Positions 22,601 to 57,818 of a stretch of 64,000 nt of DNA are shown here, piece by piece (within the stretch, counting starts at the first letter, position 1; each line of letters begins with the position of its first letter). The notes under the pieces are model-generated. The model saw only the letters and a list, made by a program, of their open reading frames with translations, ran no database searches and was not told the origin of the DNA. A program made the translations under genes and the position numbers. Origin of the DNA: Escherichia coli (lineage in GTDB: Bacteria > Pseudomonadota > Gammaproteobacteria > Enterobacterales > Enterobacteriaceae); NCBI RefSeq assembly GCF_003334305.1, contig NZ_QOWS01000011.1; one strand, given 5' to 3'.

Positions 22601-22629
22601 AAAAAGCCTGCTAGAAAGCAGGCTTTTTT
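22601..22629. terminator. hairpin terminator after ldtA, next to asnV
   Basis: aaaaagcctgc tagaa agcaggctttttt: GC stem flanked by A-run and T-run. Confidence 0.6.
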
Positions 22630-22634
22630 GAATT

Positions 22635-22710
22635 TGGCTCCTCTGACTGGACTCGAACCAGTGACATACGGATTAACAGTCCGCCGTTCTACCGACTGAA
22701 CTACAGAGGA
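22635..22710 (-). tRNA. asnV: tRNA-Asn (GUU)
   Basis: 76-nt reverse complement of TCCTCTGTAGTTCAGTCGGTAGAACGGCGGACTGTTAATCCGTATGTCACTGGTTCGAGTCCAGTCAGAGGAGCCA; anticodon loop CTGTTAA. Confidence 0.95.
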
Positions 22711-22965
22711 ATCGTGTGAACGGGGCGCATATTAATGGCAGTGCATGGTGATGTCAAAGGGTGAAATGCATTTTTTTGTTTGTTTGCTGTCAATTTCAAC
22801 AAAGTGGTGAGCTTTCAATCTTATTGGGTAATGAATCATCGTGGTGCATACCCTCCTTTTATAGGGCAGGGGAACGCGACAGCTGATTAAAGGAGCAAAT
22901 GACGAATCTATCATAATCTCTTATTTGACAGTTGGTTAGCTTGTACATCAACGCCAAAATAAAAC

Positions 22966-22981
22966 TGGCAAGCATCTTGCA
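22966..22981 (+). promoter_or_regulatory. sigma-54 (-24/-12) promoter upstream of nac
   Basis: TGGCAAGCATCTTGCA matches TGGCAC-N5-TTGCA spacing exactly, 56 bp upstream of the nac ATG. Confidence 0.65.
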
Positions 22982-23036
22982 GTCTGGTTGTAAGTAATGG
23001 CGGCACTTGGGCCGATTCTTAAAAACCGGAGGCAAC

Positions 23037-23954
23037 ATGAACTTCAGACGCCTGAAATACTTCGTAAAAATTGTAGATATTGGTAGCCTGACCCAGGCTG
23101 CTGAAGTATTGCATATTGCACAACCAGCGCTCAGCCAGCAGGTTGCCACACTGGAAGGTGAGTTAAATCAACAACTTTTGATTCGCACAAAACGGGGCGT
23201 TACGCCAACAGACGCCGGAAAAATTCTCTATACCCATGCGCGGGCCATTTTACGTCAGTGTGAGCAGGCCCAACTGGCGGTGCATAACGTTGGTCAGGCA
23301 TTATCGGGGCAAGTCTCGATTGGCTTTGCGCCAGGAACCGCTGCGTCATCCATCACCATGCCCTTATTACAGGCGGTTCGCGCTGAATTCCCGGAGATCG
23401 TTATCTATCTTCATGAAAATAGCGGTGCAGTGCTTAACGAAAAACTGATAAATCACCAACTCGATATGGCGGTGATTTATGAGCATTCCCCTGTGGCTGG
23501 GGTATCCAGTCAGGCTTTGCTGAAAGAAGATCTTTTCCTGGTAGGAACTCAAGATTGTCCGGGGCAAAGCGTTGATGTGAATGCTATTGCGCAAATGAAC
23601 CTCTTTCTCCCCAGTGATTACAGTGCTATTAGACTTCGTGTTGATGAGGCTTTTTCCCTACGGCGACTCACGGCAAAAGTTATTGGTGAAATTGAGTCTA
23701 TTGCCACGCTAACCGCAGCGATTGCCAGCGGCATGGGCGTTGCAGTATTACCCGAATCGGCCGCGCGTTCGTTATGTGGCGCAGTAAATGGGTGGATGTC
23801 ACGCATTACCACTCCTTCCATGAGTCTCTCTTTGTCATTAAATTTACCCGCCAGAGCGAACTTATCGCCACAGGCACAGGCAGTGAAAGAGTTGTTAATG
23901 TCAGTGATTAGTTCTCCAGTGATGGAAAAAAGGCAGTGGCAATTGGTGAGCTAA
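23037..23954 (+). CDS. nac: Nac, nitrogen assimilation control LysR-family regulator
   Basis: 305 aa from ATG 23037; MNFRRLKYFVKIVDIGSLTQAAEVLHIAQPALSQQV matches recalled Nac N-terminus. Confidence 0.9.
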   Translation: MNFRRLKYFVKIVDIGSLTQAAEVLHIAQPALSQQVATLEGELNQQLLIRTKRGVTPTDAGKILYTHARAILRQCEQAQLAVHNVGQALSGQVSIGFAPGTAASSITMPLLQAVRAEFPEIVIYLHENSGAVLNEKLINHQLDMAVIYEHSPVAGVSSQALLKEDLFLVGTQDCPGQSVDVNAIAQMNLFLPSDYSAIRLRVDEAFSLRRLTAKVIGEIESIATLTAAIASGMGVAVLPESAARSLCGAVNGWMSRITTPSMSLSLSLNLPARANLSPQAQAVKELLMSVISSPVMEKRQWQLVS

Positions 23955-24055
23955 GTGTTATATCGGAATGGAATAAGATGCGGGTTTTTATTATTTGTTA
24001 TGCCGGGCATTAGACTTTAACAATAACGGGAAATCTGAACTGCCCGGAGTTTACC

Positions 24056-25006
24056 GTGAATTTCCAACAACTAAAGATAATCCGCGAGGCTGCACGTCAG
24101 GATTACAACCTGACAGAGGTTGCGAATATGCTTTTTACCTCACAGTCAGGCGTCAGCCGTCATATTCGGGAACTGGAGGATGAACTTGGCATCGAAATAT
24201 TTGTTCGACGAGGTAAGCGACTGCTGGGCATGACTGAACCGGGCAAAGCATTACTGGTCATTGCAGAACGTATTCTGAATGAAGCCAGTAATGTTCGTCG
24301 GCTTGCAGACCTGTTTACCAACGATACGTCTGGCGTTCTCACTATTGCAACGACGCATACTCAGGCACGTTATAGCTTGCCAGAGGTCATTAAAGCTTTT
24401 CGCGAACTTTTCCCGGAGGTTCGGCTCGAGCTAATCCAGGGGACGCCACAGGAAATTGCGACGTTGTTGCAAAATGGCGAAGCTGATATTGGTATCGCCA
24501 GCGAGCGTTTGAGTAATGACCCGCAGCTCGTCGCCTTCCCGTGGTTTCGTTGGCACCATAGTTTGCTTGTTCCACTCGATCATCCCTTAACGCAAATTAC
24601 ACCATTGACGCTGGAATCAATAGCGAAGTGGCCGTTAATCACTTACCGACGGGGGATTACGGGGCGCTCACGTATTGATGACGCATTTGCCCGCAAAGGT
24701 TTGCTGGCAGATATTGTATTAAGTGCGCAGGATTCTGATGTCATTAAAACCTATGTTGCTCTTGGGCTTGGGATCGGATTAGTTGCCGAACAATCCAGCG
24801 GCGAACAAGAGGAAGAGAATTTAATCCGTCTGGATACGCGGCATCTTTTCGATGCTAATACTGTCTGGTTGGGACTGAAGCGAGGACAACTTCAGCGTAA
24901 CTATGTCTGGCGCTTTCTGGAACTTTGTAATGCAGGACTGTCAGTTGAGGATATCAAGCGGCAGGTGATGGAAAACAGTGAAGAGGAAATTGATTATCAG
25001 ATATAG
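24056..25006 (+). CDS. cbl: Cbl, LysR-family regulator of sulfonate-sulfur utilisation
   Basis: 316 aa; MNFQQLKIIREAARQDYNLTEVANMLFTSQSGVSRHI; CysB-like. Confidence 0.85.
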   Translation: MNFQQLKIIREAARQDYNLTEVANMLFTSQSGVSRHIRELEDELGIEIFVRRGKRLLGMTEPGKALLVIAERILNEASNVRRLADLFTNDTSGVLTIATTHTQARYSLPEVIKAFRELFPEVRLELIQGTPQEIATLLQNGEADIGIASERLSNDPQLVAFPWFRWHHSLLVPLDHPLTQITPLTLESIAKWPLITYRRGITGRSRIDDAFARKGLLADIVLSAQDSDVIKTYVALGLGIGLVAEQSSGEQEEENLIRLDTRHLFDANTVWLGLKRGQLQRNYVWRFLELCNAGLSVEDIKRQVMENSEEEIDYQI

Positions 25007-25008
25007 CA

Positions 25009-25035
25009 AAAAGCCCGCTATAAAAGCGGGCTTTT
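25009..25035. terminator. hairpin terminator after cbl
   Basis: aaaagcccgc tataa aagcgggctttt immediately after cbl stop. Confidence 0.6.
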
Positions 25036-25043
25036 CAGAAATT

Positions 25044-25119
25044 TGGCTCCTCTGACTGGACTCGAACCAGTGACATACGGATTAACAGTCCGCCGTTCTA
25101 CCGACTGAACTACAGAGGA
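25044..25119 (-). tRNA. asnU: tRNA-Asn (GUU)
   Basis: Sequence identical to the tRNA at 22635-22710. Confidence 0.95.
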
Positions 25120-25279
25120 ATCGCTGTTGAGGCACATCTTAACGGCGAAAAATCTTTTGTCAAACCCGATTTTTAAATTCCCCAACTGTTTGCCGTTTCT
25201 ATCAACAGTTTGTTGCATTTGCAGACAATTTGTTGGCGAAAATCTTTGCAGCTTTGCTGATTCTCCCTCATTATTTGAA

Positions 25280-26767
25280 ATGTGGTTTCACTTTCTGCAA
25301 TTAAGGTCGGCTTTGAATATCTCCTCTGCTTTACGCCAGGTTGTTCACGGCACTCGCTGGCACGCTAAACGCAAGAGCTACAAAGTGTTGTTCTGGCGCG
25401 AGATAACCCCGCTTGCTGTTCCTATCTTCATGGAGAATGCCTGTGTCCTGTTGATGGGTGTCCTGAGCACTTTTCTGGTCAGCTGGCTGGGAAAAGATGC
25501 GATGGCCGGCGTGGGATTGGCGGACAGCTTCAATATGGTCATTATGGCTTTTTTTGCTGCTATCGATCTTGGTACTACTGTCGTTGTGGCATTTAGTCTC
25601 GGTAAGCGGGATCGACGACGAGCGAGGGTGGCGACGCGGCAGTCATTGGTGATCATGACGTTGTTTGCCGTACTGTTGGCAACGCTTATTCATCATTTTG
25701 GCGAACAAATTATTGATTTCGTCGCGGGTGATGCCACGACAGAAGTTAAAGCACTGGCGTTGACTTATCTGGAGCTGACGGCACTCAGTTATCCAGCAGC
25801 TGCCATCACTTTGATTGGTAGCGGGGCACTTCGTGGTGCAGGGAATACGAAAATACCGCTACTGATTAACGGTAGCCTGAATATTCTTAATATTATTATT
25901 AGCGGCATATTGATTTACGGCCTTTTCTCCTGGCCGGGACTGGGATTTGTCGGGGCTGGGTTGGGTTTAACCATTTCTCGTTATATTGGCGCAGTTGCAA
26001 TTTTGTGGGTGCTGGCGATTGGTTTTAATCCTGCGCTAAGGATTTCGTTAAAGAGCTATTTTAAACCGCTGAATTTTAGCATTATCTGGGAAGTCATGGG
26101 GATTGGTATTCCAGCGAGTGTCGAATCAGTGTTATTTACCAGTGGTCGGTTATTAACCCAAATGTTCGTTGCCGGGATGGGGACCAGTGTTATTGCCGGA
26201 AATTTTATCGCGTTTTCAATTGCGGCTCTTATCAACTTACCCGGAAGTGCGCTCGGCTCTGCTTCTACGATCATTACAGGCCGAAGGTTGGGGGTAGGGC
26301 AGATAGCGCAAGCAGAGATTCAGTTGCGGCATGTGTTCTGGCTTTCCACTCTTGGATTAACGGCCATCGCCTGGCTAACGGCTCCCTTTGCCGGGGTTAT
26401 GGCATCGTTTTACACCCAGGATCCACAGGTTAAACATGTCGTTGTGATTCTGATTTGGCTAAATGCTTTATTTATGCCTATTTGGTCCGCCTCATGGGTG
26501 CTACCCGCTGGATTTAAAGGTGCTCGCGATGCCCGTTACGCCATGTGGGTTTCTATGTTGAGCATGTGGGGTTGCCGGGTTGTCGTCGGTTATGTGCTGG
26601 GCATCATGCTTGGCTGGGGTGTGGTTGGTGTCTGGATGGGAATGTTTGCCGACTGGGCTGTGCGGGCCGTGCTGTTTTACTGGCGAATGGTTACTGGACG
26701 TTGGCTGTGGAAATACCCTCGATCCGAACCGCAAAAGTGTGAAAAAAAGCCAGCTGTGTCGGAATAA
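25280..26767 (+). CDS. yeeO: YeeO, MATE-family efflux transporter
   Basis: 495 aa from ATG 25280 (ORF track extends upstream to 25127); 12-TM hydrophobic profile; position between two tRNA-Asn genes as in K-12; start choice uncertain. Confidence 0.75.
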   Translation: MWFHFLQLRSALNISSALRQVVHGTRWHAKRKSYKVLFWREITPLAVPIFMENACVLLMGVLSTFLVSWLGKDAMAGVGLADSFNMVIMAFFAAIDLGTTVVVAFSLGKRDRRRARVATRQSLVIMTLFAVLLATLIHHFGEQIIDFVAGDATTEVKALALTYLELTALSYPAAAITLIGSGALRGAGNTKIPLLINGSLNILNIIISGILIYGLFSWPGLGFVGAGLGLTISRYIGAVAILWVLAIGFNPALRISLKSYFKPLNFSIIWEVMGIGIPASVESVLFTSGRLLTQMFVAGMGTSVIAGNFIAFSIAALINLPGSALGSASTIITGRRLGVGQIAQAEIQLRHVFWLSTLGLTAIAWLTAPFAGVMASFYTQDPQVKHVVVILIWLNALFMPIWSASWVLPAGFKGARDARYAMWVSMLSMWGCRVVVGYVLGIMLGWGVVGVWMGMFADWAVRAVLFYWRMVTGRWLWKYPRSEPQKCEKKPAVSE

Positions 26768-26867
26768 ACGACAAAATGCAGATTATTTCAGCAAACGATT
26801 TCAAATTTAAAAAACAGGCTTTGACATTATGGGTGGGCATCGCTAATATTCGTCTCGTTCTCACGAT

Positions 26868-26943
26868 TCCTCTGTAGTTCAGTCGGTAGAACGGCGGACT
26901 GTTAATCCGTATGTCACTGGTTCGAGTCCAGTCAGAGGAGCCA
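26868..26943 (+). tRNA. asnW: tRNA-Asn (GUU)
   Basis: TCCTCTGTAGTTCAGTCGGTAGAACGGCGGACTGTTAATCCGTATGTCACTGGTTCGAGTCCAGTCAGAGGAGCCA, identical to the other two copies. Confidence 0.95.
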
Positions 26944-27354
26944 AATTTTAGTTTTGAGATATCTCTATGAGTCTCAAAACAGTTAAAAAATAAAAATTAT
27001 TTTTACCCGGTTACCTTGTAAAAAAGTGACCGGGTTTTTTGATTTCTGTGTTTCGTGCGCTTAATCGAGTCTCACGCTTCAGTGAGCAAGTTGCCCCCAA
27101 CAGACATCACGATTCGCAAGGTCAAAAACTCTGTTCCATGAAGTACCGTACAAAGATAAAGAGAAAAATGCCTTATGCGGGATGTCGCTATCGCGTCTTT
27201 ATCGGGAAACTATGCGTTATTGCCACTTTGCCTTCTGTAATCAGAAAAAGAAGAACTGGAATTTTAATAAATATTATTTCTCTGGGAACGGGGATTTTTT
27301 ATAATCAATATGACGAGTTGAACATTATATTTTTTATAAGGGTTATATGAGATT

Positions 27355-41945: not shown

Positions 41946-44900
41946 AACGTGTTCTCCGGTTGCGTTGAGGTTGCGCAAAGCCAGCGCGTAATGTGTTGCG
42001 CACAAGCCTGAACGTGGGGGGCTTCCATCATGATTTGCCAGTGGCTGGCTTCAATCACAGCGTCGTCGGCGTTGTTTATCCAGCCCTGCCACTCGGTTTC
42101 TGCTGGCGTCCAGCGCGCGGGTCTCCCGGCGGCATACACCATGAGACAGGGGACCGGAACGCTTTCGCCCGGCGTATGCTCAGTCAGTAAACGCAGCAGA
42201 TGCGCGATGTTGTCGAGCCACGTTTCTGCCGCTTGCAGCGTCAGGTTTTGCGACACCATACCGACCGTTTTAGCGAGGCTGATAAAGTCGGCAAGCTGGC
42301 TGTCGGGCGTCTGCTGGTCGAAATGTTCGGGCAGTGCCAGAGGCGTTTGTCCTTCGGCTAACAGGCGCAGCAGGGCCGCCCGGTTTTCGCAACAGAAATC
42401 CTGTCGGCACACGGGATCGATTAACACCATCCGAACCTGCTTGCCTTTGGCGTACAGGCGCTGTGCGGCGCCCGCCGCAAGAAACGCGCCATACGACCAA
42501 CCCGCCAGCACATAAGGGCCGTGAGGCTGCTGACGACGGATGCACCCGACATACTCATCGATCATCTGGTCGAGCGTGGCAAAGCGCTGCGGCGATTTTG
42601 CTTGCAGGCCGAAAACGCGCCTGTTCAACGCGTTAGCGAGCGGCAGCCAGGCGCTGATATCGCCGTCTGAAGCGTGGAAGACAAACAGGGTTTCCTCACC
42701 GTCGCCCTGGCAAAGGGGTATCGGGTTGTCCTCTCCTGACGTAGCCGCCTGTAGATGGGCGCAGAAGTCGCTCAGCGTCGAATGGTTGAACAGATCCTGA
42801 AGGTTAGCCCTGGCAATCCCTCTCCGGTTTAGCTGCGCGACCATCCTTGTCGCCATCAGGCTGTCGCCGCCCAGTTCGAAAAAGTCGTGATGCCTTGCCA
42901 CGGGGCGAGACAGCAGCGATTGCCAGAGTTCAGCCACCTGTTTTTCCAGCGCCGAATTCCCCCCGGCAACTGGCGTGGGTTTGGCTGGCTCAGTCGGCGC
43001 ATCAGACGGGGCATGGAGCGGCGTAAATAACGCTTCTCTTTGCCGGATCTGTAAAATGGGCAGACCGGTGCCAAAGCGCTGCTGTAAATAGCGGCTCACG
43101 GCTTTTTTATCCGGGCGATTTACGCCAGGCGAACGCGCTACCAGCAGATGCTGGCGCAGCGGCGACGATTCCTGCGCGGGCCACGCCAGCTCGTTTGCAA
43201 ACCCGGCCTGAACGAGAACCTCCTGCCATGCGGAGCGGGTGAGCATCGGTTTCTCATCCCGGCGGCGGAAATCGCGGTATCCGCTTAATCCCTCAATAAA
43301 GCCCACGCTCGCCAGCTGGAATACGCTGTTTCGCTCCGTCGCTTCAACGATCAGCAAACGTCCGCCGGCTTTCAGCAACAGTTTTAATCTGCGCAACGTC
43401 TGGACGACATGGCTGGCGTCGTGGAGCACATTGACGGCAACGATCAGGTCGTAACCCGCCTCCGGGTGGGCGGTGAAATCCAGCGGCTGGTTGATGTCGA
43501 ACAAGGCATAAGACACCTGCGATTCATCATGGAAACGGGCTCTGGCGTCATTGAGGAACTGCGCGGAGACGTCCGTGAAGTGGTACGACTGCCGCGTGTT
43601 CCGCGTGGCCTTCAGCACCGGCGCGGTAGTGGCTGCGGTTCCGGCGCCAACCTCCAGAATCCGTTCTGCGCTGCACAAGGCGGCAATCTGCGCGGTATAG
43701 CGATTCAGACAGGCGCTGGCGGGGTTGTCGCGATACAGCGCGTCGGTAACGCGATGCTGCTCGTTGAACAGCAATTCCAGCGGAGAACACTGCCCGGAGA
43801 AGAGGGCGTCGTGCCGGGCGATGCAGGTTTCCAGATACTGCGCCAGCGCCTGGCTCCATTGGCTTTGCGGGCACGCTTCCTGAGGCTCAGGAATCTCGCT
43901 GAGCGGAATGCGGCAGCGCCAGCTTTCACCTTCGCGGATTAACCACTCTCTTTCCGTCAGACACTGTAGCCACTGGCGCAGCAGACGCTGGTGAGACGCT
44001 TGCGCGGACAGCGCCTGTACTACTGCGCTAAAGCGATGGGCGATCTCCGGCGTGGTAAACAGGCCGTGACGATTTAGCGTAGCCGCGATCCCCTGTAGCG
44101 CACGCGCCTCCAGCCAGCGCCAGGTCGCCTCCAGCTCATCAAGCTGCGCCTGCTCAGGCAACGGCAGCGCCAGTTGGGTAAGTTCGTGCTCATCAGGCAT
44201 CGCCGCTGATGGCGACGGATCGTCGGCCATCACGATATCCAGCGTCAACGCGCCCTGTTCGGTTATTTCCGCTCTGGCCTGCCGGATGCCGGGGTATTCG
44301 AGCGTCGCCTGCTCAATATCCCGCAGGTCGTAGTCCGCCTGCGCGTTCAGCGGCCAGCGTCGGCGGGGAATGTGCCCGGCGATGCCGCTGGCGAGAGTCT
44401 TCAGGCTTTCAGGGGCGGCGATGACGGCTTGCAGGATGGCGCAATAGTCATTAAACATCGCCTCGGCAGCGCCGGGTTCCAGCACGTTGTCCATGCAGTA
44501 CCAGCTAAACATCAACTCGCCGTCGCTCTCCATGACCTGATGATCCAGCCAGACCTGCGGCGTTTGCGTGAATACATAGCAGGGTTCGCCGAACAGATGG
44601 CTCATCGCCTGATCGATAGTCATGCCTTCCAGCGTCATCCCCAGCATACTGGTAAACACTACCGGCATCAGCGGTTGACGTTGTGATCCGCGCAGGCGGC
44701 CCAGCTCACGGATCACCTCAACACCGTTCATTTCACTGTGCGCCATGTTTTGCCAGAGGCGCTGTTGGGTCTGTTGCATCTGCTCTTGCAACGTCACCGG
44801 CGCTGAGAAGTTAAAATCAACCAGCGTGACGGAGGTAAAATCACCAATCAACTGGTTGATTTGCGGATGGATCGGCTGGCGATTGAAGAACGTCAGGTTC

Positions 44901-47900
44901 AGCGTAAATGTTGTGGTACGGCTCCAGCGCTCAAGGGTGGCGGCAAACAGCGTGAGCAGCGCGGCAGACGGTGTGACGCCTTGCTGCTGCCAGCGCTGTT
45001 TCACGGCCTGCCATTCTGTCTTGCCGATCGTCGATTTGAAGGTGGTGAAGTGTGGCGTTTCCGGGGGCGTCTCAACCACCGGCAGCTCTGGCGCTAAGGG
45101 CAGTTGCGGCAGTTTTTCCTGCCAGTAATCCCAGGCATCGTGCCATGCCGATGTCTGTCGGCGCGCCTGTTCAGCCATCACATAATCACGGAAGGTAATA
45201 GCGAGCGGCGCCAGCGTTTCACCGCGCCAGACCTGCGCCAGGTCGTCCATCATGACTTTAAAACTCTGCACATCAAACTGCAAAAGGTCGAGGTTCATAT
45301 GCAGACGGTAATGGCAATCGTCGATTTCGCTGACCACCAGCTCAAAAAGAGGCCACTGGTCGGCAGGCAAAACGCGATAGCTCAGTTCATGCCGCCGTTT
45401 TTCCAGCGCGATGCGCTGTTCTTCCGGGGAAAGCGCGCGCAGATCGTCACGCGGGATGTGATACTCCGGCGTTGTCGCCAGGATTCGCTGCTGCCCGTCG
45501 GCATCAACCACCATACGCAACATATCGTGGCGTGCGATGAGCTGGTTCCATGCTTTCTCCAGTATGGCGAGATCGAACTCATCGTGGCGTTTATCCCACT
45601 CAAACAGGACGTGACAGGCGACGCCGCCATAGCCAATGAGGTGGGTTCGCCCCAGCCAGTAGGCGTGCTGAATGGGCGTCAAAGGGAAGGGCGCATAACG
45701 CTCGTCGGCGTCGTGCCGCAACACTTCCGGCTGCGAAGCGGCAGGCGTCGCCTCTGGCTTAGAACAGATAAGCTGCGTGAGTCCATGAGGAGACAGATCC
45801 TGCCACGCCCGTTCCGCATTGATGCGTACGCCCAGGTAGTGCTGAATATCGCTACTGAGTTCAAGGAAGAGCAGCGAGTCCATGCCGAGTTGCAACAGAT
45901 CCTGGTTTGGATGCAGTGACGCCGGATCGCTCAGCCTTAGCTGAACCGCAATCCGCTTTTTCAGCCATGCCATCACCGCTGTTTCATCGCTCAGGCTGCC
46001 GTTAAAGGCGTTGTCATCAGCAGGAGGAATGACCGGCGTTGCGGCTTTTTCTGTGGCGCTGATGTTAAACAGAGCCTGTTGTAACGGGGGCATTTTGTCG
46101 GTAAAAACGCGCATCGCCAGTCGCCACGGGGCGCCGCGCATCACCGCCTGTTCCAGGTGCCAGCAGCCTTCGGCATCGCTTAACGCGCCCATACCTCGGC
46201 TGGCGAGCGTCGCCAGCATTTCCGGCGTGGCCGCCCGACCGCTTTCTCCCCATGCGCCCCAGGCGACAGAGAGCGTTTTCGGCGCATCAAGGGTGGAAAA
46301 CTGCTGGGCCAGCCCGTCCAGGTAGCCGCAGGCCAGCGCATGGGCGCTCTGACCCGGCGCGCCGAGGGTGGCGGCAGCGGAAGAGTAGAGAATAAGATAG
46401 CGTCCGTCGTGGTTGCGCAGGGTTTGCAACAGCTGGCTTGCCGCCTGCGCTTTTACCGCGAAAACGGCAGCCAGCTGGTGGTCATCAAGCTCCTGCAAGG
46501 GCGCGTCAGCCAATACGCCAGCGGCATGAATCGCTCCGGCAATGCCGCCGTTGGCCGCCAGATCGTCAAGAACCGTGGCCAGTTGCCCGGCATCGCCCAC
46601 ATCACAACGGCAGACGCGCGTCTGCCCGCCCTCCACGTCGCGTAGCCATGACTCATCCACGCGCGGCGCCAGCAGGGCGATGCGTCGCGCCCCTTTTTCT
46701 CTGAGCCAGTTCACGGCAAGGCGGCCTAATCCGCCAAACGCTCCGGTCACCAGATGCCAGCGGCTATCGCCGGTAAACACGTTTGCCGGTAATTCAGCGG
46801 CGCATCCCGTATTGGGCGACAGTGAAGGAAGCCAAAGGGTGTCACCCCGTGCGGCGAGCCAGCGCTGTGATAGTGAGACTGCACTCAACCCTTGATGCAG
46901 CGTTTCCCACGGGGTGTTTTCGGCGAGATCGATGGCGGCAAGCAACCGTTCCGGCTGTTCGTTGGCCGCGACGCGAAGCAAGGCCCATAGCGCGTGATGG
47001 GATGCAGAGAGTGCTTCATTTTCCTCGACTCGCCACGCGCGGCGAGTAACCACAATCAATCCGGCTGCGCTGGCGGTGAGCGCTGCTATCACTTTCTCCG
47101 CTAAGGCCAGCGTATCCTCGCTCTCCTCAACAATCATCAGTCGTGAAGAGGCGTGCGGATCGTGAATGATGCCGTATTGCGCCAGCTCGTCGCTGCGCGC
47201 AAGCGTACCGGCGCTGAAGCTAAAGGTAAGCGGATGGTCAATGCTGGCGACGTTGAGGGGCGTCCAGCGCCATTGATAATGCGTTTGCGGCGCAGGAAGA
47301 GGCGCGGCGGGCGATAGCGGCAGCCACTCGCCAGCAGGATGACGGGCTTCAACGCGCATCTGACCGCGGGAAAAGGCTTCGTTTTGCCAGCTTAAGCGAA
47401 CCTTCCCTAGCCACTCCGGGGCGGCGACGGGGGGCGGTTCCACAGGCAGAGCGTCGCCATGACGCTGTGAAAGCAGACGCCAGGCCTCCTGCCAACGGGC
47501 GTTAAACCGTTCGGGCTGACCTGCGCAATCAGACCAGTCGGCGAGATAATCACCGTTATCCGTCAGCGCCTGCCCCAACACGGGTTCTGATGGCGCGGTG
47601 AATGTTACGGCGCTAACCGCCTGACCGGGCAGCGTGGCGAGAATGATATGTTCGCTCATCCCGGCGGTCGGGCTGCCATCCTGCGGTAGCCACGCCACTT
47701 TGCTGAATCCGGCGTGGCGGCACTGTTGTTGCCACTGAGCGGTGGTGAGGAATAACTCACCTTCGCGGGCGTCGAGATCCTGTAGCGGAAGAACCAGCGG
47801 GCCGAAAACGAAGTCAAACAGACGCATTGGCTGGGTGATTTCGCGCATCAGCAGGCGCCCGCCCGGCTTGAGCAGGGGGCGCAGATTATCGAGCGTGCGG

Positions 47901-50900
47901 CCAATATGGCGGGTGGCGTGAATCACGTTCGCTGCCACGATAAGATCGTAAGACTGTGCCTGGAAACCCTGAGACTGCGCCTCTTTTTCGAGATCCAGCT
48001 CGCTATACTTCACAAAATCATAGTCGGCGAATTTCTGCTGGGCGCGACGGGTGAACAGCGCCGAGATATCGGTGAAATGGTACTCCAGTGCCGGAACGCC
48101 GTTGAGTTCCGGCAGCAGCCACGCGGTGGTGCCGCCGGTTCCGCCGCCAACTTCAAGAATACGCAACGGCTGGCGGGGCTGACGCGTCTGGACAATGCCG
48201 CGTAATACCCCGGCGGCGATTTGGTTGAAATAGCGGCCAAAGCTGAATTCCTGATACAGCACTTCCACGCCGTCGGAGGCGCTTTGCGGGAAGATAATCG
48301 CCACCGGTTCTTCCGCGCCGCTCATCATTTCATATAACCGATCGCCGGCACGGGCGATGGTGTCGGGAATAGCCTGAAAACCTTCACAATAACCGGCAAG
48401 TTCCGTCAGCAGTGATTCCCGCTGTTGATGTTCAATGGGGCGGGCGCGGACGTATCGCCCGTCGGTGCAGCGGTAATCGCCGTCGACCACGCAGTTATTC
48501 AGCAGGCGCTGGAGTAGCTGCTGGTAGCGGGGCAGCAGACGTCCACGGCGCATGATGGTCATGGCGTCCACGCCGTTCTCAATGGCATCGCCGGTACAGC
48601 GTTGTACCAGTTGATCGACGTAGATGGCGTGCAGTCGCGTGGCGCACTGTTTAAGCGCTTCCAGGCGAGGGAGATCGAGCGCTGTCGCGGCGCGACTCGC
48701 CACCTCCAGCCCGGCAGACAGCGCTGCGTCGGCAGGCTCGCAGGCCGGGGAGACGCGCTCTTTCCAGTAACGTTCAGTATCAAACGGATAACATGGCGCA
48801 GCGATACGTTGTCCATCGCCCGCCAGCAGGTCGGCCCACGGTAGGGCGACGCCGGCAGCGTAAAGCTGGAGCAGGGCCTGATTGAGGACATCGCTCGCCT
48901 CTTTGTTACGCCGGGCGCTGGCTATCCAGTATGCGTTATCGCGGTATTCGCGCTGCCCGCAAGCAACCAACTGGGCATCGGGCCCCATCTCCAGAAAAAC
49001 GCGGGCGCCGAGCTGATGCGCCACCTGAATACTCTGGATAAAACGCACCGGCTGGCGCATGTGTCGGCGCCAGTAATCCGCCTGGTTGAGCGTTGACTCA
49101 TCAATGACGTCGGCGGTGAGCGTGGAAATAATCGGTATTTGCCCCGGCTCCGCGTGCAGTCCCGCGCAGGCGTCCTGGAACCGATCGAGTATCGGCTCCA
49201 GTAAAGCGGAGTGCGCCGCACCGGTTACGCTCAGGCGACGATAGTTAATGTCATGCTGCGAGAGCGTGGCGCAAAATACCGCGAGACGGGCTTCCGGCCC
49301 GGAAAATACCGTATGTTGCGTACCGTTGTTGGCGGCGAGATCCAGCTCAAACTGGCGAGCCAGCGGCATCAGCGTGTCTTCGTCTGCAAATACCGCCACC
49401 ATCGCGCCGCTTGCGCACTGCTGCATTAGCGCGCCGCGCCGACAAACCAGTGGCATGACCTGTTCAATCGTATAGTGTCCGCAGACAACGGCAGCGGCAA
49501 ATTCACCGACGGAATGCCCAATGGCGAAGTCTGGCTTCAGTCCTTCAGCACGCCAGTGCGCCGCCATCGCGATTTCAAACGCGACAATCGCCGGCTGCGC
49601 CCAGGCCATATTGTCCAGCTGCGCCGAATCGGGGTTAAACATCGCTTCGCGCAGTGACGGCGTGAGCATTTCGCTACAGGCGGAAAAACAGCGATCCAGC
49701 GTGTCGGCAAACGCCGTTGAGTGCTGGTACATCGTTTGGCCCATAGTGCGCCAGTGCGAGCCCTGGCCGGTAAACAGCCACACCTGCTTGCCGCTGGCGC
49801 CGTGGCCGCTGTATACCTGCGCCCCCGATTTCTCACTAGCCCAGGTGCTGAGCGCGTCGGCGGTTTCACGGTTTAATGGCACCGCCAGGCGGAAAGGAAG
49901 ATCGAGACGGCGCGCGTGCAGGGCCGTGAAGGCCAGATCGCTGGCATCCGCATTCTTCCTCAGCGCCCCGGCATAATCCGTCGCCAGCCGCCGCAACGCG
50001 CTGTCGCTGGCGGCGCTGAGCAGCAGCGCAGTACTTTTTCTGCCGCCATCCGTATTGGGGAGGCGCGCGTTGAGCGCATCGGGCAGCGAGGCGACGATCA
50101 TATGGCAGTTGGTGCCGCCAATACCAAAGGAGGATACGCCCGCATAGCGCATTTCATCCTGCCACGCTTGCGCCGACACTGGTACGGTAAAGGGGCTCTC
50201 CTCAAGCTTCAGCGCCGGGTTGGGGGTGTGGAAATTCAATAAGGGTGGAATTTGTCCGCGACTGACGGCCAGAACGGTTTTCAGCAGTCCGGCAATGCCT
50301 GCCGCGGTATCCAGATGCCCCATATTGCTTTTCACGGAACCGAGCGCACAGCGCCTGTCCTGCGGGCGCGGCGCATAGACGTTGCGTAACGCTTCTATTT
50401 CAATCGCATCGCCCAGCGGTGTGCCGGTGCCGTGGGTTTCAATGTAACCTACCTGCCTGTCGTCGATGGCCGCCAGCATTAACGCCTCTTCGATGACCGC
50501 CTGCTGCCCGGCGACGGAAGGGGCGGTATAGCCGACCTTTCTGTTGCCGTCGTTATTGACCGCGCTGGAGAGGATCACCGAGATAATCGGATCGCCTGAC
50601 AGTAGCGCGTCTTTCAGGCGACGCAGAACCACGCAGCCGAGACCATTACCGGCCCAGGTGCCCTCAGCCGAGGCGTCAAAAGGACGACAGTGGCCATCGG
50701 GAGAGAAAATCATTCCGGGCTGGTAGCGATAGCCCGCCTGCTGGGGGAAAGAGAGCGCCACGCCGCCGGCCACCGCCATATCGGATTCGCCTGCGCGCAG
50801 GCTTTCACAGGCCAGATGCACGGCAACCAGCGAGCTGGAGCAGGCGGTCTGTACCGATAACGCCGGGCCGTGCAGGTTGAGTTTGTACGCGGCGCGGGTG

Positions 50901-51433
50901 GCAATATAGTCTTTATCATTGCCCATCAGAGATTGCAGACCTTTTACCTGCGCGACTTCTGTCACGTTCAATGCTTCGCGACCGGGGTAGGTACTCATCC
51001 GGGAAGAGGCGAAAACGCCGGTCTTATGGGGGACGGCGCCGGGGGCATAACCGGCATGTTCCAGCGCATGCCAGACCGCCTGCAAAAACAGGCGCTGCTG
51101 CGGGTCCATCGACTCCGCTTCCTGTCGCGAATAGCCAAACAGGGTGGCGTCGAAGCAGTCGGCGTTGTCTAACACCGTACCGATATTGACATAATGAGGA
51201 TCGTCAATGATGGCGGCATCCAGACCGACGGCCAGAAGCTCTTCGCGCGTAAAGCGTCGGCTGCATTCACGACCTTCCAGCAGATTTTGCCAGAACGTTT
51301 CGCCATCCGGCGATTCAGGAAAATGGCAGGCGTAGCCGATAACCGCGACAGGTTCGCAGTCCGGGTAGTGTTGAGCGATCGATGCATCAATGGAATCTGC
51401 TGTCGGCGCAGAAGAGAAGCGCAAGTTATCCAT
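41942..51433 (-). CDS. irp1: Irp1 / HMWP1, yersiniabactin PKS-NRPS
   Basis: 3163 aa; motifs seen: KS TACSSSL, AT GHSVGE, methyltransferase LEVGGGTG, KR GAFGGLG, carrier GMDSL and FFELGGDSL, thioesterase GWSYG. Confidence 0.95.
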   Translation of the reverse strand: MDNLRFSSAPTADSIDASIAQHYPDCEPVAVIGYACHFPESPDGETFWQNLLEGRECSRRFTREELLAVGLDAAIIDDPHYVNIGTVLDNADCFDATLFGYSRQEAESMDPQQRLFLQAVWHALEHAGYAPGAVPHKTGVFASSRMSTYPGREALNVTEVAQVKGLQSLMGNDKDYIATRAAYKLNLHGPALSVQTACSSSLVAVHLACESLRAGESDMAVAGGVALSFPQQAGYRYQPGMIFSPDGHCRPFDASAEGTWAGNGLGCVVLRRLKDALLSGDPIISVILSSAVNNDGNRKVGYTAPSVAGQQAVIEEALMLAAIDDRQVGYIETHGTGTPLGDAIEIEALRNVYAPRPQDRRCALGSVKSNMGHLDTAAGIAGLLKTVLAVSRGQIPPLLNFHTPNPALKLEESPFTVPVSAQAWQDEMRYAGVSSFGIGGTNCHMIVASLPDALNARLPNTDGGRKSTALLLSAASDSALRRLATDYAGALRKNADASDLAFTALHARRLDLPFRLAVPLNRETADALSTWASEKSGAQVYSGHGASGKQVWLFTGQGSHWRTMGQTMYQHSTAFADTLDRCFSACSEMLTPSLREAMFNPDSAQLDNMAWAQPAIVAFEIAMAAHWRAEGLKPDFAIGHSVGEFAAAVVCGHYTIEQVMPLVCRRGALMQQCASGAMVAVFADEDTLMPLARQFELDLAANNGTQHTVFSGPEARLAVFCATLSQHDINYRRLSVTGAAHSALLEPILDRFQDACAGLHAEPGQIPIISTLTADVIDESTLNQADYWRRHMRQPVRFIQSIQVAHQLGARVFLEMGPDAQLVACGQREYRDNAYWIASARRNKEASDVLNQALLQLYAAGVALPWADLLAGDGQRIAAPCYPFDTERYWKERVSPACEPADAALSAGLEVASRAATALDLPRLEALKQCATRLHAIYVDQLVQRCTGDAIENGVDAMTIMRRGRLLPRYQQLLQRLLNNCVVDGDYRCTDGRYVRARPIEHQQRESLLTELAGYCEGFQAIPDTIARAGDRLYEMMSGAEEPVAIIFPQSASDGVEVLYQEFSFGRYFNQIAAGVLRGIVQTRQPRQPLRILEVGGGTGGTTAWLLPELNGVPALEYHFTDISALFTRRAQQKFADYDFVKYSELDLEKEAQSQGFQAQSYDLIVAANVIHATRHIGRTLDNLRPLLKPGGRLLMREITQPMRLFDFVFGPLVLPLQDLDAREGELFLTTAQWQQQCRHAGFSKVAWLPQDGSPTAGMSEHIILATLPGQAVSAVTFTAPSEPVLGQALTDNGDYLADWSDCAGQPERFNARWQEAWRLLSQRHGDALPVEPPPVAAPEWLGKVRLSWQNEAFSRGQMRVEARHPAGEWLPLSPAAPLPAPQTHYQWRWTPLNVASIDHPLTFSFSAGTLARSDELAQYGIIHDPHASSRLMIVEESEDTLALAEKVIAALTASAAGLIVVTRRAWRVEENEALSASHHALWALLRVAANEQPERLLAAIDLAENTPWETLHQGLSAVSLSQRWLAARGDTLWLPSLSPNTGCAAELPANVFTGDSRWHLVTGAFGGLGRLAVNWLREKGARRIALLAPRVDESWLRDVEGGQTRVCRCDVGDAGQLATVLDDLAANGGIAGAIHAAGVLADAPLQELDDHQLAAVFAVKAQAASQLLQTLRNHDGRYLILYSSAAATLGAPGQSAHALACGYLDGLAQQFSTLDAPKTLSVAWGAWGESGRAATPEMLATLASRGMGALSDAEGCWHLEQAVMRGAPWRLAMRVFTDKMPPLQQALFNISATEKAATPVIPPADDNAFNGSLSDETAVMAWLKKRIAVQLRLSDPASLHPNQDLLQLGMDSLLFLELSSDIQHYLGVRINAERAWQDLSPHGLTQLICSKPEATPAASQPEVLRHDADERYAPFPLTPIQHAYWLGRTHLIGYGGVACHVLFEWDKRHDEFDLAILEKAWNQLIARHDMLRMVVDADGQQRILATTPEYHIPRDDLRALSPEEQRIALEKRRHELSYRVLPADQWPLFELVVSEIDDCHYRLHMNLDLLQFDVQSFKVMMDDLAQVWRGETLAPLAITFRDYVMAEQARRQTSAWHDAWDYWQEKLPQLPLAPELPVVETPPETPHFTTFKSTIGKTEWQAVKQRWQQQGVTPSAALLTLFAATLERWSRTTTFTLNLTFFNRQPIHPQINQLIGDFTSVTLVDFNFSAPVTLQEQMQQTQQRLWQNMAHSEMNGVEVIRELGRLRGSQRQPLMPVVFTSMLGMTLEGMTIDQAMSHLFGEPCYVFTQTPQVWLDHQVMESDGELMFSWYCMDNVLEPGAAEAMFNDYCAILQAVIAAPESLKTLASGIAGHIPRRRWPLNAQADYDLRDIEQATLEYPGIRQARAEITEQGALTLDIVMADDPSPSAAMPDEHELTQLALPLPEQAQLDELEATWRWLEARALQGIAATLNRHGLFTTPEIAHRFSAVVQALSAQASHQRLLRQWLQCLTEREWLIREGESWRCRIPLSEIPEPQEACPQSQWSQALAQYLETCIARHDALFSGQCSPLELLFNEQHRVTDALYRDNPASACLNRYTAQIAALCSAERILEVGAGTAATTAPVLKATRNTRQSYHFTDVSAQFLNDARARFHDESQVSYALFDINQPLDFTAHPEAGYDLIVAVNVLHDASHVVQTLRRLKLLLKAGGRLLIVEATERNSVFQLASVGFIEGLSGYRDFRRRDEKPMLTRSAWQEVLVQAGFANELAWPAQESSPLRQHLLVARSPGVNRPDKKAVSRYLQQRFGTGLPILQIRQREALFTPLHAPSDAPTEPAKPTPVAGGNSALEKQVAELWQSLLSRPVARHHDFFELGGDSLMATRMVAQLNRRGIARANLQDLFNHSTLSDFCAHLQAATSGEDNPIPLCQGDGEETLFVFHASDGDISAWLPLANALNRRVFGLQAKSPQRFATLDQMIDEYVGCIRRQQPHGPYVLAGWSYGAFLAAGAAQRLYAKGKQVRMVLIDPVCRQDFCCENRAALLRLLAEGQTPLALPEHFDQQTPDSQLADFISLAKTVGMVSQNLTLQAAETWLDNIAHLLRLLTEHTPGESVPVPCLMVYAAGRPARWTPAETEWQGWINNADDAVIEASHWQIMMEAPHVQACAQHITRWLCATSTQPENTL

Positions 51434-51520
51434 AATCGGTCCCGTTTCCTAAGATTCACAAAGTCAATGGAACGCCATGCGTTCGCGATGGCGTTCCGGG
51501 GAAAATCAGTTTGCTTCGCG

Positions 51521-54500
51521 CTATATCCGCCGCTGACGACGGCGAACAGGGCGAGGTCGTTTTGTTTTCTCCACCGTGGCGACGCCGGCCAGATAATCGG
51601 CCAGGGCAGCAGGAGAAGGGTGGGTGAAGAGGTCAAGCAACGTCAGGGTGGAAAATTCGTGACGTTGTAACAAAACGTGCAGTTGCACCAGATTCAGCGA
51701 CGTTGCGCCCGCCTCAAAGAAGTTTTCTGCGGGCGTGACAGACTCGCCAACCACCTCGCGGAAGGCGTCGCAAATCAGGCTGACGGTGCTCTCGTCCGCC
51801 GCAATGTGTGGCTGAGAGTGCTCAGGGCATACGCGCGGTGAGCGCTCTGCGCATTGCCCTGCGTGTTTAACGGGAGGCACCAGCGCGGCGAGCGGCAGTT
51901 GCCAGCCGCTTTCATCCTCGGCCATTCGGTTTAGCAATGCGCAATACTGTTCAAACTGGCGCTCCACCTGCCCGGCAGGAAACAGCGCGGCGACAAAATC
52001 CCAGTTAAAGCGCAGTTCGCCTTCGGATTCATAAATCTGGTGATCGAGCCAGACCTGCGGCGTCTGGGAGATGCCCCAGACCGGTTTGAGCAGATTACGC
52101 CGGGCGAGGAAGTTATCCTGCTCAAAGCCCAGTGCGCTGGTAAAGACGACGGGCATCGGAACGGCAGGCACGTTTTGCCGTTGCGCCAGTTGACGCATCA
52201 CGCGGATGGCTGACACATCGCGGTGGTTGAGGTTCTGGCTCAGCCGCTGCTGTAGTGACTGCGCGCTGTGCAGCCAGCTTTCGCCGGGATGCCAGCTCAG
52301 CAGCATCAGCGAGGTGAAATCGCCCAGAATCTGGTTGATTTGCGGGTGCAGCGGTCGCCTGTCGAAAAGCGTAAGGTTAAGCGTGAACTCAGGCTGTGCA
52401 CTCCATGCAGAGAGAACCGTTGACCACACCGACAACAGTACGGCCGACGGGGTGAGATGGGCGTCAGCCGCCCGTTTTTTCAGCCGATGCCAGCGCGTGC
52501 TGTCCAGTGCGCCGTTCAGGCGGGCGAAGCGCGGTGTTTCAACCTCCTGAGGCAAGCAGCGCAGCGGCAACGCAGGCGCCGGAGGAATATCATCAAGCTG
52601 CGCCTGCCACCATGCCAGAGAATCTGGATTGGGCGACTGTAGCGAGGGTTGTTGCAGATAATCCCTGAAGGTGACGGGCAGCGGCGGAAGCAGCTGTTGC
52701 GGGTAGCGGTAGCCGTGCTCCAGCTCCGCCAGCAGGATCTGCATGCTCAGACCGTCAAGCAACAGGTTATCCAGACACAGCCACAGGCGGGCAGGCATCC
52801 CGTCCACGTATCCGACCTGGAGATCGAATACCGGCCACACTTCGGGGTTGAGTACCTGATGCGCCAGTTTTTCGCGCACCCGCAACGCCTCTTCAGGCGT
52901 ATGGAGGGTGTGTGCGGGTATCACCCAAGGGGGCGTCTGTTCGAGCACCTGTTGCTGTCCATCACGCACGATGGCGCGCAGCATATCGTGGCGGGCGATT
53001 AATCGGTTCCAGACCGTCTCCAGCCGGGTGAGGTCCAGATCGGCAATTTCAAATTCAACAAAGAAATGTGAGCCGACGCCGCCCAGGGCAAAGCCCGGCT
53101 GACGCCCCACCAGGTAAGCCTGCTGCACGTCGGTAAGCGCAAAGGGCTGGTAGCGATCTTCAGGGGAGTGGACGAATGGTTGTTCGACCGGGACGTCGGT
53201 TTTCCGCAGCGTGGCGGCAAAATCCGCCAGCCGGGGATGATTAAACAGGTCGCTTAATTGCGCTTCATAACCTGCCTGATGAAGTTGCCCGGTCAGACGG
53301 GTCGCCAGCAGGCTATCGCCGCCTTGCTGGAAGAAGTCGGTTTCTCTGGTGACATTGCCAGTTGATAAGAGTTGCTGCCAGAGGGCGGCAACCTGTTTTT
53401 CAATGTCGCCCTGGGGTAAATCCGCTTCGGCCGGGTTTTCCGCTTCAGGGGTATGACGACGCTTCAGCGCCTGGTAGTCAATTTTCCCGTTAGCCGTCAG
53501 CGGTAAGGCGTCGAGGAATACGATCCGTTGCGGCACCATCCACCCCGGCAGACGCCCGGCGAGGGCGGCCTGAAGTTGACGGGGATCGCGGCGCACCTGC
53601 CTGTCAGGACATTGTACGAGGAAGCGTTGTAACCCCGCGACCTCATCGCCATGCTGACAGTTGAAGCCGGCCGCGCTAAATAATGCCGCCCAGTCGGCGC
53701 TGTTATGCAGCAAGGCCTCCGGCTGCCCATTGGTTAACAGGAGCGTGCTGAGTAGGGCGGACGGCGTTAACTGGCGAAACTCCATCACGTAGAGCAGCGC
53801 GCCGGGAACGGCAAGCTGTTGTAATGTCGCAAGGAGCCCGGGATCTTCCGGCAGCAGACGATGCAGGGCGTTATTAAGCCAGATAATGTCCGCCGAGTGA
53901 GCGTGCGTCGCCAGCGTGTCTGCATTCCAGAGGGACAGACGGGCGCCAGGCCAGGGGGCGAGCCTCTGCCGGGCGCTCAGCAGCATCTCCTGGCTCTGCT
54001 CAAGCCCGACATACTCAATCTGTCCGGCGTTGAGCTGTGCTAACAGCGATTCTGCGGCGCGGCCAGTGCGGGTTCCCACCTCAAGCAGGCGTACCGGGCG
54101 CTGTAAGCGCTGTGCAAGCTGTTGGCAAATTGTCGCCAGTTCCTGAATATACGGGGCGCTGGCCGGATGGTTAAAGGCCAGGCTTTCCGGCGACCACTGC
54201 GCGTCGTTCAGTAACGACAGTTCGTTACGGGCACCGCGAAGAATTTGCGATAACGTTAAATCATGTCCGCTGAAGTGCGGGTGCTCATCCTCGCGTTCTT
54301 CACCAGCGCAGACCTGATAACCTTCAGCAGCGGGCTTCAGTCGCCGTTGTGTCACCAGAAATGCTAACCAGCGTTCCACCACGGCCTGCCAGCGCGGCTG
54401 GATAGCGAGTGAGTTCATCAGGGGGAGAGGATCGGCGCCAGCGGTGTGACCCGGCTTCAGTTTTAGCAGGCGATGCTGAAGGAAATCGGCTACCTGTTCT

Positions 54501-57500
54501 GCGGAGATCTCTGGCGAGATGGCGCAACAGGGCAACGTTCCCGCAAGCGTGTGCCACGCCTGCGGCAGTGCCGGGTTCCGATGATCGGTAACGCAAAAAG
54601 CCTCGCCCTGAGGAACAACGTATGCCGCCAGCGTTTTTTCTTTTTCGCCGATCGCCAGAACGGTTGCTTGTTTCACCCCCGCCAGCTGGCTGAGCGCGCT
54701 TTCGATTTCGCCCAGCTCGATGCGATATCCTCCGACTTTGACCTGCTTGTCGCGACGACCGAGGAACTCGATTGTGCCATCTGGCCAGTAGCAGCCGAGA
54801 TCGCCGGTGCGATACCAGCGCTCGTCCGGGAGCGTCAAAAATTGCTGCTCGCTACGCAGGGGATCGTTGAAATAGCCTTCCGCGACCCCAATGCCGCCAA
54901 TCCATAATTCACCCGGCACCCAGTCAGGGCAGTCCCGGCCCTGTTCATCCACCACCCGGTAGCGTTGGTTGGTTAGCGGAAAACCGTAAGGGATGGAGCG
55001 CCAGTGGGCGGGGACGTCGTGAATTTCGCAGGCGTTAGACCAGATAGACGCCTCGGTGGCGCCGCCCATCGCGATAAATTGTCCTTGTGGCCGGAAGGCC
55101 CGATAACGGGCGGGGAGGTCAAGCCCGATCCAGTCGCCGGAAAGCATCACTGCGCGCAGGTTTTCCGGCGTGGCGTCGGCGAAACCTTCACACCAGGTCA
55201 GCAGCATATCGAACAGCGCCGGGACGCTGTTCCAGAGCGTGACCTGATGGCGCTGGATCAGCTCACACCATGCGTGAGGATCGCGCCGTTGATTTTCCAT
55301 CACCATCACCAGCGCGCCGCCCGCGCGCAGTACGCCAAAAATGTCGTAAACCGATAAATCAAAATGTAGGGCGGAGAGGGCCAGCACCCTGTCATGCGGG
55401 CCAACCTGATAGCGGGTATTGATATCGCAACAGGTGTTAAGCGCTCCCCGGTGAGAAATGACTACCCCTTTCGGCGTACCGGTAGAGCCGGAGGTGTAGA
55501 TAATGTAGGCCGGTTGCGTGGGGGCGCGTACTACCGGGTTGGCGATCGGCTCCGCCTCAATGGCCTGCTGCCAGGCAAGGACGGGAATATCGTCTGACCC
55601 GGCGCTGGCGTCGTGCTGACAAATGAGCACCAGCCGGACGCTGGCGTCAGCGTAGATTTTCTCGCGCCGTGCGGCAGGCTGATCCAGCGAAACCGGAACG
55701 TAAACCGCCCCGGCCAGCAGGACGGCCAGAACCGCAACAAGTTGTCCTGCGCCTTTCGACATCGTGATAGCCACATTATCGCCGGGCTGAACCCCGCACT
55801 CGATTAACCTGCCCGCGCAACGGCGGGCATAGTCTGTCAGCTCATGATAATTCCACTGATAACGCATGTCCGTTACCGCCAGCGCCTGCGGCTGTTGCAG
55901 AGCGATACGGAAAATGCCTTCATGCAGCAAGCCTTCGGGAATGGGGGCGCCGGTGGCGTTGACCCGTTCGCGTATCGCGCGCTGGCTGGCGGGCATCATA
56001 TCTGCGAACGGCTTTTGCCAGGCGCTTTCGTCATCGCAGAGTTGGTTAATCAACTGGCAGTAGGCGTCGAACAATGTTTCGACTAACGCCGGAGGGAACA
56101 GCGCGTCGTTGCTGTCCCATTGTAGCCAGACCTCGCCGTGATGCTCGAACGCCAGATGATCTATCCAGACCTGCGGCGTTTGCGAGATGCCCCATTCCGG
56201 CTCGCCCAACGGCGATTCTGCGCGGCTGCTGTAGAGGGAACGCCCCAGATTGCTGGTAAATACCACCGGGGCGCCGTGGGGGTAGCGCTGCTGGCGTTTG
56301 AGTTCACGGAGTAATTCGACGCCGGACCAGTGGCGATGCTCCCAGTCCTCCGTAAACGTGAGCTGGTTTTTACGCGCCAGGTTGCTGACGGTATCGCCAT
56401 CGCAGGCGGTATCCAGCAGAAGAATATTGGTGAAGTCGGCAAGCATCGCGCCAACCGCCGGGTGCAGCGGCTGGCGGTCGAATAAGGTGATGTTAAGCAG
56501 CAGACGCGTCAGGCCGCCCCAGCGAGCCAGCACGGCAGAAAAACAGGTCGCCAGTGCCATTGTCGGCGTCACGCCATACTCGCCGGCCCGGTTGCTAAAG
56601 GCGTGCCAGCGTGTTGCCGGGACAATCATGCGGCGTCGGGTATTACGGACTTCACGTAGCGTGGCGGGTTCGCAGGCCAGCGGCAAGACGGGCGCGGGGG
56701 GAAGCGTCGATGCTTTCGCCAGCCAGTAAGCGCGCGCGTCGTCTCTCAGTGGTTGATTGATCTTCTGCTGGTGCAGCAAATACGAGCGGAAATCATAGCG
56801 GGTGTCGATAGCCGGCAGCGATTCTCCGGCCAGCAGGGCGTTAAGCTCATCGAAGAAAAGCGTAAAGCTGGAGGCATCCATAATCAGCAGGTCAATATTG
56901 ACATGGAGGCGGTGGCGATTGTCCGGCAAGAGCGTCAGCTGAAAATCAAACGTTTCGCCGATTTCCACGCGTAAAAGACGGTGGCTCAGGCGCTGGCGCA
57001 GTGCGTCCAGATAGGCCTGGCGGCTTTCAGCGTCGTTATGGCGTAAATCATGAACGGTGACGCCGTTCCAGTAAGGTTGCGGTAGCCAGACCTGCTGCCC
57101 GTCGGGGCGAAAGGCGATATGCAGCATTGGGTGGCGTTGCAGCAAGGTCGTGATGGCCTGCTCCAGCTGCGACGCCGTCAGACAATGGCCTTCAAACTCC
57201 TGATACAGGTGGCAACCCACGCCGCCAAGCGTCTGCCCCGGCATGCGGCCCGTCAGGTAGGCGTGCTGTACTGGCGTCAATGGGAAGGGCGTACTTTCGG
57301 TCATGTTCGGCCAGGATGATTCGTCGGGCGGCGTTTCTTCTTCCGCGTTCTCCGGCGACCGGCTGAGCATTAACTGGTTCCATGCCGCCAGCGTGGGGGC
57401 GGCATACAGCTCGCGAAGGGTAAGGCGGTAGCCATTTTTACGAAACCAGTGTAACCATCTCATCAATCTTATGGAATCCAGGCCGGCCTGGATCAGGTTG

Positions 57501-57628: not shown

Positions 57629-57667
57629 TCTTCCTCCTGATGGCACGTCTTACCGAAAAGCATTACT

Positions 57668-57739: not shown

Positions 57740-57755
57740 TAACAGGCGGAAAGAA

Positions 57756-57786: not shown

Positions 57787-57818
57787 TCAGGGAGGAGTTT
57801 AGGGGGGCGCGACCCCGG

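Follow-up and report, generated by a model that had tools for sequence, protein, structure and literature searches.

Three identical tRNA-Asn genes with empty 3' ends, asnV, asnU and asnW, in an Escherichia coli genome

The 64,000-nt stretch of Escherichia coli DNA analysed here (contig NZ_QOWS01000011.1; hereafter the window) contains three tRNA genes in total according to ARAGORN, all of which are tRNA-Asn genes with the anticodon GTT (GUU) at position 34. They are embedded in the annotated gene order cobU-cobS-cobT-ldtA-tRNA-nac-cbl-tRNA-yeeO-tRNA-yeeN-amn-shiA and were located by ARAGORN, Rfam and the annotation alike:

22635..22710, minus strand: asnV, tRNA-Asn(GUU), 3' end toward ldtA
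25044..25119, minus strand: asnU, tRNA-Asn(GUU), 3' end toward cbl
26868..26943, plus strand: asnW, tRNA-Asn(GUU), 3' end toward yeeN

Each gene scored 72.6 bits against the Rfam tRNA model RF00005 (gathering score 29). At a permissive threshold, Rfam returned nothing beyond the tRNAs except sub-threshold chance matches (manA-II, 32 bits against 100, and rnk_pseudo, 30 against 55). An alignment with 20-nt flanks showed that all 76 nt are identical among asnV, asnU and asnW, with similarity fading in the flanks. A repeat finder recovered the same relationships as an 84-nt direct repeat between asnV and asnU (100% identity), an 85-nt inverted repeat between asnU and asnW (100%) and a 104-nt inverted repeat between asnV and asnW (96%; arms at 22631-22734 and 26844-26947), asnW being inverted relative to the other two. 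An earlier reading of this DNA from sequence alone (the sequence-only reading) had described three identical tRNA-Asn genes within 4.3 kb under these same names. Both statements were borne out, the first by ARAGORN, Rfam and the alignment (22635-26943, from the start of asnV to the end of asnW, is 4309 bp) and the second by the flanking genes in the annotation of the matching strain A7, where ldtA/nac mark asnV, cbl/yeeO mark asnU and yeeO/yeeN mark asnW, all annotated as tRNA-Asn. A fourth copy, asnT, is present in the A7 record and is identical to these three. E. coli has a single annotated tRNA-Asn(GUU) species with four chromosomal genes, of which asnV, asnU and asnW are three; their identity is probably maintained by selection on the tRNA together with gene conversion.

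The A7 record (NZ_CP028767.1, from orangutan faeces) was matched at 100% by a 10-kb query from the window. The window corresponds to positions 2842660-2906659 of that record, reverse-complemented, with 0 mismatches over the compared window positions 100-64000. All but one of 5426 complete E. coli genomes have these conserved gene copies, so that the three-copy match is not a product of chance, and the 5425 genomes with copies are the denominator for the comparisons below. That the three genes look identical through an artefact of assembly, with repeats collapsed or copied, would follow from the general risk attached to repeats, and nothing beyond that risk speaks for it. The repeats are just 76-104 nt long, unique flanks place each one unambiguously, and the three-copy layout recurs in thousands of independently assembled complete genomes. 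We therefore give this explanation almost no credence; it is already refuted by the population data. As a separate observation, a tRNA-Asn copy with approximately 25 nt of matching 5' flank lies at about 2917-3021 of a 5969-bp sequence from strain AH21A060 (NZ_CP196293.1) that is presumably a plasmid and has two matching places; plasmid places matching the tRNA-containing queries number 13-14 across the collection.

The 3' end of each gene carries the 17-bp asn attachment core (attO/attB), CCAGTCAGAGGAGCCAA, as an exact match that is followed directly by native flank:

22634..22650, minus strand: attachment core at the asnV 3' end (exact 17-mer match)
25043..25059, minus strand: attachment core at the asnU 3' end (exact 17-mer match)
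26928..26944, plus strand: attachment core at the asnW 3' end (exact 17-mer match)

The same 17-mer is listed as attO by Paauw 2010 (PMC2801613). Allowing up to 3 mismatches, these were the 3 occurrences in the window, against 0.09 expected in shuffled sequences. No second or partial copy of the tRNA 3' end that could represent an attR repeat was recovered by this search, and since the 17-mer is limited to the three tRNA ends, the window holds no residual direct repeat. Each 3' end instead joins its native terminator and core-genome flank directly. The spacers between asnV and ldtA (55 bp) and between asnU and cbl (37 bp) are made up of terminators, while the spacer between asnW and yeeN measures 451 bp.

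We searched for integrase sequences using tBLASTn with three asn-type integrases, those of the high-pathogenicity island (HPI) of A7, the pks island of BH100N and an island of EC26, which are 69-81% identical to one another. There was no match in 22000-28300 (best E-value 0.09), a result that does not extend to very old, eroded remnants, which similarity cannot detect. The HPI integrase gave a best E-value of 0.35 against the whole window, and the positive control, the integrase at asnT, was recovered with an E-value of 0.

To compare the flanks with those of other strains, we used 1-kb queries centred on each tRNA 3' end, with the following results:

ldtA-asnV-nac junction: contiguous in 4665 of 5425 genomes (86%)
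cbl-asnU-yeeO junction: contiguous in 5177 of 5425 genomes (95%)
yeeO-asnW-yeeN junction: contiguous in 4971 of 5425 genomes (92%)

The contiguous junctions are 95-100% identical across genomes. Their contiguity in most of the genomes indicates that the flanks in the window are ordinary core genome. In K-12, the asn family (asnV-asnU-asnW, from ldtA/erfK to yeeN) has the same genes, flanks, order and orientation as here, and K-12 derivatives gave full-length matches to all three junctions at 97-99% identity. For this gene family, the window strain differs from K-12 in carrying the HPI at asnT, which K-12 lacks, and in no other material way. The comparison with the 5425 genomes showed no strain-variable DNA between the tRNA and its conserved neighbour gene at any of the three junctions of the window. 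An integrase, an attR repeat and strain-variable DNA, the marks of an occupied tRNA-linked island, are all absent from the three copies, and all three tRNA 3' ends are empty in the window strain. The sequence-only reading, which had placed no integrase or island beside the three genes, held up in the search for integrases, in the search for extra cores and in the contiguity of the native flanks in related genomes. We also looked for the partial integrase or direct-repeat remnants that it had named as evidence to the contrary, and found none.

What speaks for present or former occupation of at least one copy, with a degraded island, an integrase remnant or a leftover repeat still alongside, is found at asnW, where the spacer to yeeN is long and AT-rich (38.5% GC in 27000-27999) and holds a 103-aa open reading frame (ORF). 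This ORF, like the other small spacer ORFs, has no family match in NCBIfam, and the missing second core and missing integrase similarity described above count against a remnant at any of the copies. Of the 5425 genomes, 5398, among them K-12, have a match to at least 80% of a query made up of the tRNA and 500 bp toward yeeN, so that this stretch belongs to the core DNA and is no remnant peculiar to one strain. At asnV and asnU, the spacers are short and consist of terminators throughout. Occupation or a remnant is therefore very improbable, and this alternative is largely refuted already.

Near-consensus promoters are predicted approximately 20 nt upstream of each tRNA gene, and a terminator is predicted downstream of each:

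22729..22757, minus strand: asnV sigma-70-like promoter, TTGACA-17-TAATAT (consensus scan 10/12; consensus match only)
25136..25163, minus strand: asnU sigma-70-like promoter, TTGACA-16-TAAGAT (consensus scan 10/12)
26821..26849, plus strand: asnW sigma-70-like promoter, TTGACA-17-TAATAT (consensus scan 10/12)
22601..22628, minus strand: predicted asnV intrinsic terminator hairpin between the tRNA and the ldtA stop codon (terminator scan; 12-pair stem and T run)
25008..25035, minus strand: predicted asnU terminator hairpin, AAAAGCCCGC...GCGGGCTTTTT (read from the sequence; missed by the scan)
27005..27040, plus strand: probable asnW terminator, ACCCGGTTAC...GTGACCGGGTTTTTT (read from the sequence; missed by the scan because its loop exceeds 8)

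The asnU terminator is 77% identical to that of asnV, and the two form a repeat family (D2). With a predicted promoter and terminator at each gene, asnV, asnU and asnW appear to form three separate, small, one-gene transcription units.

The bracketing of each intervening segment by full tRNA copies with an attO core also raises the question of how the cluster arose. The nac-cbl and yeeO segments could be ancient 'genomic modules' with an asn tRNA attachment site on either side, in which case the cluster would be a fossil integration hotspot and not a group of virgin sites. Paauw 2010 (PMC2801613) described equivalent modules in Enterobacter hormaechei (EhGM3-5), with a nitrogen assimilation regulator and a MATE transporter, and read these homologous modules as possible island remnants; GC content in our window is 47-48% across 22000-26999. 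However, almost no E. coli genome lacks these segments (5425 of 5426 have them), and what they encode is chromosomal regulators and a transporter, with no integrase or mobility genes. We consider such an origin improbable for this locus. It would in any case long predate the species and leaves the present emptiness of the three 3' ends unaffected.

The only asn-associated island in this strain is the HPI, the yersiniabactin island, most of which lies in the window, up to its right-hand end:

36312..64000, minus strand: HPI, with fyuA, ybtE, ybtT, ybtU, irp1, irp2, ybtA, ybtP, ybtQ, ybtX and part of ybtS (A7 annotation)

The window ends at 64000, inside ybtS. Past this point, the A7 record has an intact 420-aa tyrosine integrase and then a tRNA-Asn gene adjoining mtfA, which is asnT. 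In extended window coordinates the integrase lies at 65335-66597 and asnT at 66759-66834, that is, 1.3-2.8 kb past the end. The sequence-only reading had assigned the island to this fourth copy beyond the window, and correctly so. An HPI-type integrase adjoins asnT in 2133 of the 5425 genomes, which makes the layout very common.

No right-hand (fyuA-side) attachment-core repeat of the HPI was found in the window with the 17-mer at up to 3 mismatches. Approximately 590 bp of the sequence found downstream of asnT in K-12, including the start of yeeJ, is missing, and homology to yeeJ restarts at 35308. According to Auvray 2021 (PMC8209727), deletion of the right repeat has immobilised the E. coli HPI and fixed it at asnT. 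The site at asnT in A7 has the same character, with the island integrated, the integrase intact and the right-hand repeat missing, whereas asnV, asnU and asnW share the exact 17-bp core of the asn attachment site used by the HPI of Yersinia and E. coli and are empty. The HPI of this strain belongs to the truncated E. coli form that is immobile; it is fixed in place, and without its far direct repeat it is unable to relocate into asnV, asnU or asnW. Along the right border of the island (32854-36311), yeeJ is present in two parts, a beta-domain ORF of 250 aa and an Ig-like pseudogene with a frameshift, and an AT-rich 650-bp stretch without an annotated gene separates the beta-domain ORF from fyuA.

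The three slots that are empty here are occupied in other E. coli strains. The pks-positive strain BH100N has its colibactin island flanked by ldtA on one side and a tRNA-Asn gene on the other, with the island's integrase adjoining the tRNA; at the far end of the island is a repeat with 16 nt in common with the tRNA 3' end and the 17-mer core intact, followed by asnV-type flank. At asnV in EC26 there is an island whose P4-type integrase is a pseudogene and which also encodes an Rhs-type toxin. PE144 has an island on the cbl side of asnU (extracted region 9500-18524), with a 24-nt direct repeat and encoding DUF6387, HTH, H-NS-like, CoiA-family and RepL proteins, and 1424KP has an island of the same type on the yeeN side of asnW (extracted region 1-12025), also with a 24-nt direct repeat. 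The PE144 and 1424KP islands have identical 24-nt repeats and identical island-end sequences, and the use of asnU and asnW by one island type in different strains shows that the copies are interchangeable for this element. Across genomes, 16-24 nt of the direct repeats at occupied slots match the tRNA 3' end, and native flank comes next. Auvray 2021 (PMC8209727) reported identical asn tRNAs and the insertion of pks at asnW, asnV or asnU.

Two apparent leads on slot use were set aside. In HZDC01 (extracted region 1-9054), a sugar-phosphotransferase/hexulose-phosphate cluster abuts the asnV terminator in place of the end of ldtA. This insertion or replacement starts just past the position of the ldtA stop codon, beyond an asnV terminator that is still native and intact, rather than at the tRNA 3' end; we rejected this 'island' as a case of attB use. 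The query of the tRNA plus yeeN flank was likewise rejected as a count of occupied asnW slots, because an occupied slot still covers approximately 91% of the query through the direct repeat, and it served only to find an example, H208.

Since islands are found at each of the three slots in other E. coli, the three copies are real potential attB sites, as the sequence-only reading had suggested, and they would probably function as attB in the window strain too. With CCAGTCAGAGGAGCCAA, each gene ends in the recombination core on which the P4-type tyrosine integrases of asn-targeting islands act, namely those of the HPI, of pks/colibactin and of ICEEc1-like elements. The three copies would then be open to incoming asn-targeting elements, and closed to the resident HPI. 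It is highly likely that asnV, asnU and asnW are ordinary, identical tRNA-Asn genes and empty, free landing sites, with the HPI fixed at asnT as the only asn-associated island. This reading has its limits: similarity searches are blind to very old and eroded integrase remnants, the genomes in which a junction is not contiguous are a mixture of insertion sequence elements, rearrangements and islands, and the promoter and terminator calls are consensus matches. No data that contradict it were found in these analyses.

The mutual orientation of the outer two genes has a further consequence. Being inverted relative to each other, asnV and asnW form a substrate for the 4.3-kb inversion of pks-positive B2 strains, in which the segment between them is flipped:

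22631..26947, no strand: segment with nac, cbl, asnU and yeeO, bounded by the inverted asnV/asnW arms (repeat finder)

Both the three tRNA genes and the 4309-bp segment are shared with pks strains (PMC8209727), and the inverted asnV/asnW arms exist here too. In BH100N, the nac-cbl-asnU-yeeO segment is inverted relative to the window. The pks strains BH100N and Nissle 1917 have the flipped segment and the island between ldtA and the yeeO-flanked tRNA, whereas the window strain is without pks and has the segment in the ancestral (non-pks) orientation. Searches of the 5425 genomes for the junctions diagnostic of each arrangement gave the following counts:

nac-tRNA-yeeN (flipped junction): at least 265 genomes
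pks-end/ldtA junction: 269 genomes
pks-type integrase adjoining the yeeO-flanked tRNA: 367 genomes
ldtA-tRNA-yeeO (flipped, without an island): 1 genome (SE15)

A clean arrangement that is flipped and empty was found in none of the 5425 genomes, the near-exception SE15 being more complex. In SE15 (NC_013654.1; extracted region 7501-12953), an inverted yeeO-asnU-cbl-nac segment is accompanied by a partial yeeO copy in the original orientation beside asnW, an arrangement that resembles an inverted duplication and lacks a pks island. We rejected SE15 as an 'inverted but empty' case, given the extra partial yeeO copy in its annotation. Approximately 100 genomes have a pks-type integrase by the yeeO-flanked tRNA (367) without the pks-end/ldtA junction (269); in these, presumably, a different island with a related integrase occupies asnW and the segment has its ancestral orientation.

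The asnV/asnW pair might itself be a recombination switch, flipped through the inverted att cores by the integrase of an incoming asn-targeting element. The flip would turn the 4.3-kb nac-cbl-asnU-yeeO segment and lock the newly arrived island in place, and the window strain, with its ancestral orientation and three free cores, would represent the 'pre-flip' state. The data show no more than an association of the flipped state with the colibactin island, and the flipping agent could be an integrase or RecA; we regard a switch of this kind as improbable. The association of the flip with the pks island is already published, and because the inversion between asnV and asnW in pks strains has been reported down to its size of 4309 bp (Auvray 2021, PMC8209727), we do not present it as a new observation.

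The asn tRNA cluster is the textbook case of a hotspot at which the yersiniabactin and colibactin islands integrate, and which of its copies are free bears on whether a strain could still gain, for example, a genotoxin island by site-specific integration. The window strain has three intact sites with nothing inserted, an HPI that is fixed at asnT and a segment in the ancestral orientation; this has little import beyond correct annotation. The whole arrangement is an ordinary feature that has already been published (Auvray 2021, PMC8209727; Paauw 2010, PMC2801613).

Farther from the tRNA genes, the propanediol-utilisation (pdu) operon is complete at window positions 1184-19751, where it is accompanied by pduF, pocR and a cobalamin riboswitch (approximately 18242-18416). 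The pdu/pocR region is followed by a 145-aa hypothetical ORF only and then by cobU-cobS-cobT, the cbi cobalamin-synthesis genes being absent from this position. In Salmonella, the cbi genes come after pocR. In the regions examined of BH100N, SE15 and PE144, pdu genes are absent and cobU is preceded only by a fragment annotated as a 'cobalamin biosynthesis protein'.

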